64,000 nucleotides of DNA, taken from NCBI GenBank assembly GCA_000004695.1, contig CM000155.2:2336001-2400000 (forward strand). The letters are read 5' to 3'. The notes beneath the pieces are model-generated. The model saw only the letters and a program-made list of their open reading frames with translations. It searched no databases and was not told the DNA's origin. Within the stretch, counting starts at the first letter, position 1, and each line of letters opens with the position of its first letter. Both the position numbers and the translations under genes were made by a program. Below are positions 5,851 to 11,480 of this stretch, piece by piece. This DNA is from Dictyostelium discoideum (taxonomy: Eukaryota).

Positions 5851-6050
5851 ATTATAAATTAGAATAGGTTATTGTGTGAACAAAAAAAATAATAAAAAAT
5901 GTTTTTTTTAAAATTAATAATTAATAATTTTAAAAGAAAAAACAAAAATAAATAAATAATAAAACTTTTTTTTTGGTTGTAATATTTTTATGAACCAACA
6001 CTCTCACCCACAACTGAAATTATATTTTTAAAACTGTTGCACCACTCTCC
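5851..6050 (-). promoter_or_regulatory. Conserved non-coding upstream element, copy 1 of 3 (5' flank of the disrupted small-gene paralog)
   Basis: Copy 1 is near-identical to 7620-7860 and ~85% identical to 11250-11480. The shared core is aattagaataggttattgtgtgaa...aatgtttttt...attaataa..agaaaaaacaaaaataaat...gtgaacc.acactctcacccacaactgaaattatattttt. Each copy lies immediately 5' of a family member on the minus strand. Confidence 0.45.
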
Positions 6051-6189
6051 AAGTGTTTTTATTTTTTTTTTTTTTTTTAAAAGCTATTTTGTGATTATTT
6101 TATATAATCTTAATATCTAATGTAATAAACTGAGCAACAAAATATGCTACCGGTTTTATGATACCCCACCAAAATACTTGTTATATTAT

Positions 6190-6830
6190 GTAATTGAAGT
6201 GGAAAATGTTATTGCTTGTTGTGATCTGATTTCTTTTCCTTTGTTGTTAATCTTGCTGTCGCTGCCTCTTTATCTTTTTTAGATCTTTCTTCTTTGGGGG
6301 CATATCCTTTTAATATCATATCTAAAATTGGTGGAGTATTACCTTCTTCAATTGTCATCAGTTCTATCAATTGTTTTTGACCCAGTGAATGCTAAACAAC
6401 ATATATATTATTACTAACACTGCTTGTTATTGGAATTGATTCGATTGAAATTATTGCAACTATACAATAATCACCTGCTAATAAATTATCAAAGATAAGG
6501 TTGCCATCAGAATCTGTTGTTGTTTGAATTAAATTGATATTGATCTGTTTGAATTGTTGATGTTTAACCATTTCCACTGTTGGTTAAAGTAATTTCATAG
6601 AATGGTGTAACTGGGAAACATGGTTTAACAATACCTTCAACACTCGGTGAATCATCAGTACGTTTACCAGTATTGGGATGATCGAACCAAACACTATCGT
6701 TTACATTGAAAGTGGAATAAGATCGAGATTTGCATTTGTGGTTGATCGAGTAAATCGAATGCGTATTTACCATTTCATCTATGACAAGTCTGTGGTTGAT
6801 GTTCAAAATTTAAAGTTATTTTTATTTATT
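6190..6830 (-). pseudogene. CnaB-type (carboxypeptidase-regulatory-like, colossin-like) repeat protein fragment with a frameshift
   Basis: Minus ORFs 6564..6806 and 6392..6577 overlap in different frames. Together they give ...VKHQQFKQININLIQTTTDSDGNLIFDNLLAGDYCIVAI..., which matches the CnaB / prealbumin-like motif TDxDGxYxFxNLxxGxYxV. A C-terminal tail ...ILDMILKGYAPKEERSKKDKEAATARLTTKEKKSDHNKQ* ends near 6190. There is no intact long ORF. Confidence 0.45.
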
Positions 6831-7103
6831 TTAATTTTATTTTATTTTATTTTATTCATTAAATAACTCATTCTCTTTTTAATTCTTACATATTTCACTT
6901 TGTGAGTTTGTGTTTGAAAAAAAAAAATTATAAAAAAAAAAAAGTTGCAACTTTTTTTAATATAATTATTATTTTATTTTTTTTTTATTATTTTTTTATT
7001 TACTTTTTTTTTTTTTTTTTTTTTTTTTTTTTTAAAAAAATTACAAATAACCTCAATGACAATGTTAAAAAAAAAATGGATTAAAATATGGAAAAGTTAA
7101 ACA

Positions 7104-7613
7104 CTAACGAGTGCAGTTATCTGGTAAATGGTCAGCATCATAATCACATTTTGTTCCCTCTGGAAGATCACATAATCTTACTGGCTTTCCATTAAGAATT
7201 CCAACTTTGAAATTAATTAACACAAGTTTGTTTTGCATATTGATTGGGTCTACTTTTATTTCTTTTGCATCAAAAGTTTTGTATATTCCATCGATTGGGT
7301 CCTTTCTTCTTTCTTTTAATTCGAAAAAAATTTCATAAAAAATTAGGTCACTTTCTTTTGTTTGTTTAGCATATTCAAAGATTCTAGCATCTTCAAAATA
7401 TCTTTGTGTTGAAGTTAAAAATTGCTCCATTACTATTTTATAAATCTCTTTCATTTTTGTTTTACATTCTTCGTTGCAATAACCATTAAGCATTTTTGGA
7501 AAAAGGTTAGGGTTAACCAATTCATCATAATACACACGATAACCATATTTTTTTAAACTTTCAAGAGAATAATAATCATGTGGACATTTGTACTTGGACA
7601 TTATAATGGACAT
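7104..7613 (-). CDS. Small-protein family member (169 aa), function unknown; its C-terminus ends ...CDYDADHLPDNCTR
   Basis: The ORF is intact and ~70% identical at the amino-acid level to 10747..11244. It has a conserved upstream element and an A-rich start context. No domain is recognised. Confidence 0.7.
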   Translation of the reverse strand: MSIIMSKYKCPHDYYSLESLKKYGYRVYYDELVNPNLFPKMLNGYCNEECKTKMKEIYKIVMEQFLTSTQRYFEDARIFEYAKQTKESDLIFYEIFFELKERRKDPIDGIYKTFDAKEIKVDPINMQNKLVLINFKVGILNGKPVRLCDLPEGTKCDYDADHLPDNCTR

Positions 7614-7619
7614 ACCAGT

Positions 7620-7860
7620 AAAATTGAAATAAAATAAAATGTAATACTTTGTAAATTAAAAATTAGAATAGGTTATTGTGTGAATAAAAAAAATAATAAA
7701 AAAAATGTTTTTTCAAATTATTAATAAAAGAAAAAACAAAAATAAATGGATAATAAAACTTTTTTGCTTGTAATATTTTGTGAACCCACACTCTCACCCA
7801 CAACTGAAATTATATTTTTAACACAAAATTTCCAATATCAACACTGTTGTACAACCACTT
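7620..7860 (-). promoter_or_regulatory. Conserved non-coding upstream element, copy 2
   Basis: See 5851-6050. It lies directly 5' of the 7104..7613 CDS. Confidence 0.45.
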
Positions 7861-8264
7861 ACAAATTGTTTTTACTTTTTTTTACAAATTGTATTGAGCT
7901 CCAAAAATAGAATACTAGAAAAAAAAAACTAATTTATAGAAAATGAAAAATAAAGAAAGAAAATCATTCATTCATTCATTCCAACAGACTGATTAAAACA
8001 AAAACAACAACAACAACAACAAATAAATAAAATAATGAAAAAGGTCAGAGTCAACCAACTCTTCATAAAAAGTATAACTAAATTTTTGGCTTTTTTCTAT
8101 GTTATTTATTGATTTACCAATATATAGAAGTGGAAATGGAATATTTGGAGGGGAACCTGTATATGTATTTGGTTTTTGTGAGAAAATTAAATAAACACCT
8201 GGAAATGCACATTCTTTTGGAGGTTCTCCATCATCTAAAAAAGGAACACATATCCATATAAAGA

Positions 8265-9389: not shown

Positions 9390-9990
9390 CCAGTAGTTCC
9401 TGTTGTTAATCTCGCCGCCTTTATTTTTTTTAGATATACCTTTCTTCTTTGAAGCATATCCTTTAATATCATATCTAAAATTGGTGGAATATTACCTTCT
9501 TCAATTTATTCTAAATATTTTACCAATTTTGAATGAATCTAACCAAGCACTATCCTCAACTGTGAGTAATGGAAATAAACCAAGATTGGCGTTTATAATT
9601 GTTTCATCGAAAACAATATGATCCTGATACTTGATCTTTTAATGCATATTTACCATTTTCATTTGTGACAAAGGTGTAATTAATGTTCCATTTGTTGATG
9701 ATGTGATAATAACTTGAACCCCATCTGATTCTTCTTTACCACTGTTATTCTTATTGATCTAAAATATTGAGCAATATCGAGTGTTGATACGAAACCTGGA
9801 TTGCCATCAGTTCTATGAATAGATTGTGATCCAGTGGGTGCTAATCAATATTCATTATCAGCAAAGAAATTATCTGCACTGCTTGTTACTAGAATTGATC
9901 GATTAGAGTTTGCAACTATACAATCACCTGCTAACAAATTATCAAAGATAGGGTTGCCATCAGAATCTGGTGTTGTTTAAATTAAATTAC
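9390..9990 (-). pseudogene. Second, rearranged copy of CnaB/colossin-like gene fragments
   Basis: Segments 9421-9500, 9781-9850 and 9885-9985 match 6275-6350, 6340-6400 and 6455-6535. An extra CnaB-like unit (...VTNENGKYALKDQVSGSYCF...) is inserted at about 9500-9780. The frames are broken. Confidence 0.4.
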
Positions 9991-10107
9991 CATTTGAGTA
10001 TTGTGGGTCATGATTCTATGATTTCAAACTACGTTCTAAATTTAATGAACATTAATGAAAATTCTTCTTTTGAATTTTTTGAATCTTTATCTTTATCTTT
10101 ATCTTTA

Positions 10108-10247
10108 TAATTATTATTATTATTATTATTATTATTATTATTATTATTATTATTATTATTATTATTATTATTATTATTATTATTATTATTATTATTATTA
10201 TTATTATTATTATTATTATTATTATTATTATTATTATTGTTATTATT
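10108..10247. repeat. (ATT)n microsatellite, ~45 units
   Basis: A direct read shows a perfect att repeat with a single G interruption near 10238. Confidence 0.9.
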
Positions 10248-10746
10248 TCATTTTTTCATATTTCTTTAATTTTTTATTTCATTTTTACGATCGTGGAACA
10301 AAATATAATGGTTCGAGCAAAAATTGAAAAAAAAAAAAAAAATTGGAAAAATTGGAAAAAAAAAAAAAAAAAAAAAAAAAAATTGGCGCTAAATGAAAGT
10401 AAATTGTTATTTATTCTCAAAACAATCTAATAACCTTTTTATAAATAGTTTTTTTATTGTTTTGGTTAAATTAATAGTTTTTAATATTTAAAAAAAAAAA
10501 AAAAAATAAAAAAATAAACAAAAAATAAAAAAAAGAAATCACACTATTTTTTTTTTAAATCAAAAATAAATTAAAAAATAAAATTAAAAAAAAAAAAAAG
10601 AGGCAAGGCTGATGGTTGAATTGTTGTTATAAAAAAAATAGATAAAAAACATTGATATTTATTTATTAAATTTGGATATTTGTGAAAAAAAAATAAGGAT
10701 TGAGAATGATACAAAAAAAAACCTTTTTTTACCTAAAGTTGAAACA

Positions 10747-11244
10747 CTAATGAGTGCAGTTATCTGGTAAATGGTCAGCATCGTAATCACATTTTGTTCC
10801 ATCAGGAAGATCACATAATCTGACTGGCTTTCCATTAAGAATTCCAACTTTGAAATTTATTAACACAAGTTTATATTCCCTATCAATTGGGTCAACTTTT
10901 ATTTCATTTGAATTGATAAATTTGTATTTTCCATCGATTGGGTCCTCTGTTAATTCTTTTAATTCGAAAAATCTTTCATAATAAATAAGGTCACTATCTT
11001 CTGCTTTTTTAGCATATTCAAAGATTCTAGCATCTTCAAAATATCTTTGGGTTGAAGTTAAAAACTGTTCTATTGATATTTTATAAATCTCTTTCATTTT
11101 TGTTTTACATTCTTCGTTGCAATGACCATTTATCATTAATGGAAAACGGTCAGGGTCGAACAATATATCAAAATATAAACGATAACCATATTCTTTTAAA
11201 CTTTCAAGGGAAAAATCATCATGTTCACATTTGTACTTTAGCAT
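10747..11244 (-). CDS. Small-protein family member (165 aa), paralog of 7104..7613
   Basis: The ORF is intact and has the same architecture and C-terminal motif CDYDADHLPDNCTH. The conserved upstream element lies at 11250-11480. Confidence 0.7.
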   Translation of the reverse strand: MLKYKCEHDDFSLESLKEYGYRLYFDILFDPDRFPLMINGHCNEECKTKMKEIYKISIEQFLTSTQRYFEDARIFEYAKKAEDSDLIYYERFFELKELTEDPIDGKYKFINSNEIKVDPIDREYKLVLINFKVGILNGKPVRLCDLPDGTKCDYDADHLPDNCTH

Positions 11245-11249
11245 TTTAA

Positions 11250-11480
11250 TGTATATTAATGAGTAAAATTGAAATAAAATGTATGTATTGCTTTGTAAAT
11301 TAAAATTTATAAAAGGTTATTGTAAAAAATAAAAAATAATAAAAAAATGTTTTTTCAAATTATTAATAAAAGAAAAAAATAAATAATTATTAAAAAAAAA
11401 AAAACTTTTTTTTGGGAGTATTTTTGTGAACCCCCACTCTCATCCACAACTAAAATTATATTTTCCAATCAACACTGTTT
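11250..11480 (-). promoter_or_regulatory. Conserved non-coding upstream element, copy 3
   Basis: See 5851-6050. It has the same core: ...gtgaacccccactctcatccacaactaaaattatatttt. Confidence 0.45.

Follow-up and report, generated by a model that had tools for sequence, protein, structure and literature searches.

The 64,000 nucleotides analysed here (in the following "the window"; GenBank assembly GCA_000004695.1, contig CM000155.2, positions 2,336,001 to 2,400,000 of the forward strand) belong to chromosome 6 of Dictyostelium discoideum AX4 and contain an array of three small-protein gene copies, all of them on the minus strand and each preceded by a similar non-coding block. This upstream block is probably, though by no means certainly, the ordinary promoter and 5' leader of a tandem small-protein family found only in Dictyostelium, and it includes a candidate pair of G-box sites for the factor GBF. 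Its conservation, which a first-pass annotation of the sequence had considered unusual, is an artefact of the comparison that was made, and the locus is an ordinary old tandem duplication.

The array comprises two intact copies (B, DDB_G0293026, and C, DDB_G0293162) and one remnant (A), as the first-pass annotation had recognized (Table 1). For copy B, the open reading frame (ORF) delimited mechanically (7104-7613, 169 aa) corresponds at 100% to DDB_G0293026 and acquires four extra codons by means of an upstream in-frame ATG; because the start context (CATTAAAATG / ATTAAAATG) is kept across 16 family copies from four genomes, the start is here moved to 7601, giving a protein of 165 aa. The proteins of B and C are 77% identical, somewhat more than the approximately 70% first estimated. 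The array gains and loses copies: AX4 possesses two intact copies and the remnant, three to four copies exist elsewhere, and pseudogenised members are present in numbers that vary by strain (window and loci L002-L006).

Copies B and C align as one single unit of 880 bp (7093-7972 versus 10735-11606; 81.5% identity, 20 gap openings), in which the similarity extends around 370 bp upstream and not only the approximately 230 bp originally described. The upstream matches are far above chance (BLAST E-values of 1e-30 to 1e-59), and the blocks resemble each other because they were duplicated together with the gene; the block is also found upstream of family copies in two other genomes, including all three full copies of locus L003. 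An identity of 85-95% had been given for the block, but such values apply only to its 40-nt core (87.5-95%), whereas identity over the whole block, with its indels, is lower (BLAST: 85.7% for B and A, 83.2% for B and C, 76.1% for C and A).

The claim that non-coding conservation exceeds that of the coding region could not be upheld. Between B and C, the coding sequence is 87.3% identical without gaps (third codon positions 86.7%; synonymous differences per synonymous site, pS, 0.196; nonsynonymous differences per nonsynonymous site, pN, 0.112) and identity at synonymous sites is around 80% (1-pS = 0.80), whereas the upstream sequence from the distal element to the ATG reaches 83.6% ungapped and 70.8% with gaps counted. 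The 36 pairs formed by nine copies, taken from four genomes, have a mean pS of 0.18 (1-pS 0.82; pairwise range of pS 0.08-0.27) and a mean ungapped upstream identity of 0.80. The apparent excess arose because protein identity had been compared with DNA identity, and the protein seems less conserved because most of it evolves fast. On the whole, the upstream block has diverged since duplication at approximately the synonymous, i.e., near-neutral rate, accompanied by many indels. Adjacent pseudogene fragments (6242-6535 versus 9401-9988) are equally similar (78-84%). Identity between AX4 and a divergent assembly of D. discoideum amounts to 95.6% in the syntenic flank (ileS and its neighbours), but to only 88-90% in the corresponding family units.

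Within this near-neutral block, an alignment of 16 upstream regions (A, B and C of the window and 13 from loci L002-L006) reveals four conserved islands; on the coding strand, these are a far block (TTCTATTTTTGGAGCCTCAAT), a distal block, a core (ATATAATTTCAGTTGTGGGTGAGAGTGTGGGTTCACAAAA, around 200-240 nt before the ATG), and a proximal block. In copy A, deletions have removed around 42 nt from the leader and the 23 nt that separate core and distal block elsewhere, and the far block is absent. In the window, the 30-nt core has exactly three occurrences where none is expected (it never appeared in shuffled sequences), and in the seven sequences searched (window and loci L001-L006) its exact motif is situated nowhere except upstream of family copies. 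In non-coding DNA with a background of around 14% G+C, the retention of G and C over ordered pairs amounts to 0.889 in the 30-nt core among the eight copies keeping the element, compared to 0.737 for G and C in third codon positions and 0.512 for those in the remainder of the block. It has been demonstrated in part that this G+C-rich core is better kept than synonymous sites, and it is the only upstream piece that looks constrained. The suggestion of a constrained promoter holds for these approximately 30 nt, but not for the block as a whole, which matches synonymous sites and pseudogene fragments. A structured element in the 5' untranslated region, proposed as well, is not supported, as RNAalifold on 11 leaders finds no pairs (energy 0).

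Concerning the function of the core, GBF-type sites constitute the best-supported mechanism, and the motif makes them candidates for it. The GBF response element is given as (T/G)G(T/G)G(T/G)G(T/G), after Hjorth et al. 1990, and pairs of it occur in the sigN Group 2 paralogs, whose promoters are similar to one another (PMC2257962). The core of B contains two direct TGTGGGT heptamers 5 nt apart, both in exact agreement with the published element; of the 35 such heptamers on the two strands of the window, those at 7784-7802 form the single pair. Copies A and C each possess one perfect heptamer and one that is a base off, and several core substitutions in other copies preserve the K-G-K-G-K-G-K pattern, e.g., TGTGTGT and TGGGGGT.

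The expression check proposed in the first-pass annotation can be answered from published RNA sequencing, which reveals developmental induction of both genes: on filters, DDB_G0293026 and DDB_G0293162 are both listed as up after 7 h and after 8 h (UP_Hr07, UP_Hr08; Rosengarten 2015, PMC4403905, additional file 7). In suspension pulsed with cyclic adenosine monophosphate (cAMP), the former is up at 5, 6 (rapid) and 8 h and the latter at 8 and 12 h; DDB_G0293162 is down from 14 h (entry DOWN_Hr14_gradual), and the same paper counts gbfA as one of the factors that act when aggregates turn into mounds (PMC4403905). The distant paralog DDB_G0268832 carries three heptamers upstream (at -209, -171 and -122), and its expression peaks at this same time, with raw counts that climb from 0-1 (0 h) to 52/66 (7 h) and 94/29 (8 h) (PMC4403905). 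The paralog DDB_G0288733 has no heptamer in the 600 nt upstream and is a growth-phase gene that is down-regulated from 0 h (PMC4403905). GBF, or a factor of like specificity, would bind the heptamer pair after aggregation, and the bound pair would switch the genes on around 7-8 h into development. Transcription would start within the conserved stretch that follows the T-run, and the same stretch would supply an unstructured leader of around 85 nt. The short G-box pair is probably functional and fits known Dictyostelium developmental promoters.

Several points weigh against this. Two perfect heptamers exist in B only, and C is induced all the same despite its degenerate one. Of eight distant paralog promoters, two (DDB_G0268832 and P0025) contain three heptamers, two contain one, and four, that of D. 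purpureum among them, contain none; as a background, 47 of 973 windows hold two or more. The homologue of D. purpureum (L001, the only one checked) has neither a heptamer in the 600 nt upstream nor an alignable block, and one intact copy (L002_8001) is entirely without the core. The core window was picked after the alignment had been seen and the copies are related by descent, such that the retention contrast overstates significance. The reverse complement of the heptamer resembles the Dictyostelium upstream sequence element (DUSE), and the core sequence by itself is therefore ambiguous. The position of the transcription start is one that we infer. A literature search found no GBF-binding or gbfA-mutant data for either gene; their identifiers had no main-text mention in this search, and both genes are missing from the supplementary lists of the cell-type RNA sequencing paper and the GtaC paper.

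Among the other explanations, a real developmental cis-element read by a factor different from GBF, e.g., a Myb protein at the adjacent CAACTG/CAACAG or another binder of CACCC/GTGGG, is unlikely, but it deserves real weight. The conserved island exceeds the heptamers at both ends (by TTTCAGTTG and by TTCAC), the palindrome CAACAGTGTTG of the distal block contains a YAACNG-type sequence, and copy C is induced with one heptamer degenerate; the CAACTG/CAACAG and YAACNG-type sequences are here presumed, from their consensus, to be Myb-type sites. Against such a factor stand the exact match of the paired heptamers to the published GBF element (PMC2257962), the timing, which suits the aggregate-to-mound transition where gbfA acts, and the presence of heptamers, which follows expression among the three paralogs.

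That the whole block including the core is neutral, simply undecayed since the duplications, has little probability in our opinion. Overall upstream identity does equal synonymous identity, the nearby pseudogene fragments are as similar as the block, and both the post hoc choice of the core and the intact copy lacking it are in line with such an absence of selection. The G/C retention of the core, however, exceeds that of the rest of the block and of third codon positions despite the strong A/T bias, and both genes are tightly regulated, so that some promoter element must exist.

Recent gene conversion, by which the upstream regions of the paralogs would have been homogenised and which had been put forward as an explanation of their similarity, is very improbable. 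The pS values of all pairs resemble one another, as they might if members of the array had exchanged sequence now and then, and the copy number of the array differs between strains. Upstream identity is, however, not above synonymous identity (36-pair means of 0.80 versus 0.82; B and C 0.84 versus 0.80), the upstream region of B is closer to its counterpart L003_10013 from another strain (0.91) than to C (0.84), that of C is closest to L003_11590 (0.92), and the copies differ by many indels. For B and C, these sequence comparisons largely refute gene conversion.

It is equally hard to believe that the core represents a DUSE-type promoter of a small non-coding RNA (ncRNA; e.g., Class I RNA), directed on the plus strand away from the protein gene. 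The plus strand does read ACCCACAA, only one base off the DUSE consensus [AT]CCCA[AT]AA, and conserved blocks followed by T-runs are situated downstream on this strand. Yet the strict consensus matches none of the three cores, an Rfam E-value scan of 3500-12500 yields only two transfer RNAs (tRNAs), and there is no CTTACAG motif or TGTG box at the right distance. Furthermore, the spacing between the core and the next block varies (0 nt in A, 4 nt in C, 17 nt in B) instead of being fixed at around 60 nt, and the T-runs follow at once, leaving no room for an RNA of 42-65 nt.

A dispersed repetitive or mobile element is scarcely credible: retroelements are abundant at the locus, but the 64 kb contain the core no more than three times, its exact motif is confined, in six other Dictyostelium loci (around 100 kb), to a constant position upstream of family genes, neither target-site duplications nor terminal structures surround the block, and membership in a known repeat family present at many loci, which the first-pass annotation had named as evidence against a constrained element, was not found in around 200 kb of Dictyostelium DNA.

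Concerning the proteins, a Pfam search places neither of them in a family, in agreement with the initial impression that they have no recognisable domain. A profile search of 1.84 billion representatives retrieves 17 proteins, and all of those whose source could be read come from the genus Dictyostelium (D. discoideum, D. cf. discoideum, D. purpureum, D. firmibasis and D. dimigraforme). The structure prediction that had been recommended gives a confident AlphaFold2 model from 18 sequences (predicted local distance difference test, pLDDT, 84.5; predicted template modelling score, pTM, 0.75), and the modelled fold has no counterpart in the PDB. C42, C46 and M50 are invariant across the family, and an N-terminal C-x-H and the cysteine of VRLC are widely kept; that this Cys/His pattern might bind a metal is only a guess from the residues.

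The comparison of coding with upstream divergence, likewise proposed at the outset, results in a mean pN/pS of 0.72 over the 36 pairs, several of them above 1, with upstream divergence approximately equal to synonymous divergence. Purifying selection is confined to the C-terminal motif: pN/pS amounts to 0.18-0.23 in the KVGILNGKPVRLCDLPEGTKCDYDADHLP stretch and to 0.5-1.3 elsewhere, with windows up to 1.29, and strong constraint is limited to the last 30 residues. One might read this as an undescribed, fast-evolving, aggregation-induced family, restricted to the genus Dictyostelium and engaged in an arms race of social conflict or recognition, with the G-box core wiring all copies to the multicellular switch. 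The fold without PDB counterpart, the copy-number variation and the pN/pS values near or above 1 outside the invariant C-terminal motif form a pattern known from genes drawn into such conflicts or arms races, but relaxed constraint explains the same values, and we hold the arms race to be distinctly unlikely.

The inactivation of copy A is due to a tRNA-targeted retroelement, to a frameshift and to 3' truncation. A 5'-truncated retroelement (4864-5816) splits its coding sequence, is bordered on both sides by the 10-bp target duplication ATGTCCACAT, and was inserted 127 nt downstream of tRNA-Ser(AGA). The continued coding remnant contains a 1-nt frameshift in an A-run, and its similarity to the other copies stops near 4787, such that the 3' rest of the gene has been lost. 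A second 5'-truncated poly(A) retroelement is situated upstream of the same tRNA gene (3981-4610, minus strand; ORF2 tail with zinc-finger motif, poly-T at 3988-4053). TRE3 elements insert around 100 bp downstream and TRE5 elements around 50 bp upstream of tRNA genes (PMC5006619), and by position and structure the two elements flanking tRNA-Ser(AGA) would represent this classic TRE5/TRE3 arrangement. The label "TRE3-like" is based on position and structure because the homologues of the retroelement ORF found by a homologue search are all unnamed.

The proximity of two copies to tRNA-Ser genes, noticed from the beginning, is real (Table 1). A tRNA-Ser(AGA) is also located at the far end of the array of L005. 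Both genes are old flanking markers of the array and are not tied to the function of the family; tRNA-Ser genes attract retroelements, hence the retroelement damage to copy A, and this is their only role here. Two exact DUSE matches to [AT]CCCA[AT]AA (ACCCAAAA) are found on the minus strand at 11809-11816 and 11848-11855, where they precede the 5' end of tRNA-Ser(GCU) by 11 and 50 nt. Beyond them, an ORF of 933 aa (12091-14892, minus strand) looks like an isoleucyl-tRNA synthetase and carries a poly-Q insert near its C-terminus.

The repeat unit also includes a degenerate second gene with broken frames, patches of which are 78-98% identical between its two copies. In other strains, gene models fuse this second gene to the family gene (P0006, P0012, P0015), and a fragment of it exhibits a weak, below-threshold match to transthyretin-like domains (NOMO_3rd, E = 1.3e-4). 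A long (TAA)n/(ATT)n microsatellite of around 50 units (10080-10240) separates this second gene from copy C. On the plus strand, at 8265-8777, an ORF of 170 aa contains twelve tandem repeats of 15 nt encoding (A/V)EKEK, followed by a Gly/Ala-rich hydrophobic tail; its first 40 nt or so recur, as judged by eye, in inverted orientation at around 9333-9372 on the minus strand, where they head a truncated ORF, which suggests a convergent, decayed duplicate. Concerning the promoters, the motif GTTTCTATTTTTG follows ACCCACA-type elements in the promoter of DDB_G0268832 (L008, 2790-2880) and also forms the far block (window 7893-7912) in promoters of the B and C type; these promoters may have here a further cis-element in common.

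Table 1. Features of the small-protein gene array and its flanks (positions refer to the window).
Feature	Position	Strand	Remarks
tRNA-Ser(AGA)	4655-4736	+	target of retroelement insertions on both sides; tRNA/Rfam scan
Copy A, coding remnant continued	4787-4863	-	around 25 codons; 88-89% to B and C; left target-site duplication 4854-4863
Non-LTR (long terminal repeat) retroelement, 5'-truncated	4864-5816	+	953 bp; ORF2 end, internal A-run (5658-5691), 3' module, A tail
Copy A, first 8 codons	5817-5840	-	start codon 5838-5840; includes right target-site duplication ATGTCCACAT 5817-5826
Copy A, upstream block	5841-6058	-	shorter; alignment
Copy A, core	5990-6029	-	first heptamer intact, second degenerate (TGTTGGT)
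Degenerate second gene of repeat unit, downstream of B	6209-6806	-	counterpart downstream of C at around 9250-10000 (-)
Copy B, coding sequence (DDB_G0293026)	7104-7601	-	165 aa; 100% match to P0001; conserved start context
Copy B, upstream block (promoter and presumed 5' leader)	7602-7972	-	alignable with C over full length
Copy B, proximal block (TTCACACAATAACC...CATTATAATG)	7602-7684	-	directly after long T-run, reaches ATG; well conserved
Copy B, core	7780-7819	-	reads AAAAATATAATTTCAGTTGTGGGTGAGAGTGTGGGTTCAC on coding strand; heptamers TGTGGGT-GAGAG-TGTGGGT at 7784-7802
Copy B, distal block, palindrome CAACAGTGTTG	7837-7866	-	counterparts 11469-11499 (C), 6030-6055 (A)
Copy B, far block (TTCTATTTTTGGAGCTCAAT on coding strand)	7893-7912	-	counterpart 11524-11544 (C); absent from A
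Copy C, coding sequence (DDB_G0293162)	10747-11244	-	165 aa; match to P0004; 77% protein identity to B
Copy C, upstream block	11245-11606	-	alignment with B
Copy C, core	11426-11464	-	first heptamer degenerate (TGTGGAT), second intact (TGGGGGT)
tRNA-Ser(GCU)	11716-11798	-	conserved flanking marker between ileS and first family copy; same arrangement in L003 and L005

The practical value of these findings is modest, and the principal one is negative. Nevertheless, the heptamers at 7784-7802 constitute a precise target for promoter dissection upstream of a gene pair with clean induction at 7-8 h, and if GBF does act there, another paralog family joins the few whose promoters contain pairs of GBF-type sites. 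The analysis also flags an uncharacterised, fast-evolving protein family of the genus Dictyostelium without a recognisable fold.

The upstream organization found here is similar to that of post-aggregative GBF promoters with G-box or CA-rich elements (cprB, cotC, lagC; sigN Group 2, PMC2257962), with which it shares two close heptamers around 200 nt before the ATG within an A/T-rich promoter, as well as genes that are silent in growth, induced around the aggregate-to-mound transition and responsive to cAMP. As in sigN Group 2, similar promoters are found among clustered paralogs of small proteins without assigned function. Despite this general similarity there are differences: induction is listed at 7-8 h here and reported at 10-12 h for sigN, the proteins are unrelated to SigN, control by GBF is here a candidate assignment from motif and timing, and both heptamers are intact in only one of the three copies. 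The likeness to the DUSE promoters of small ncRNA genes (PMC3188802, PMC7919456) consists of the CCCA-containing octamer ACCCACAA on the opposite strand, which differs from them by one mismatch, by variable spacing, and by the lack of an ncRNA gene, a TGTG box or a Class I motif at around 60 nt. Finally, the array resembles other tandem, lineage-specific families of Dictyostelium that evolve by birth and death and are hit by TRE5 and TRE3 elements (PMC5006619), sharing with them copy-number variation, pseudogenes and a tRNA-linked poly(A) insertion with target-site duplication; it exhibits no unusual difference from such families and behaves as expected of them.

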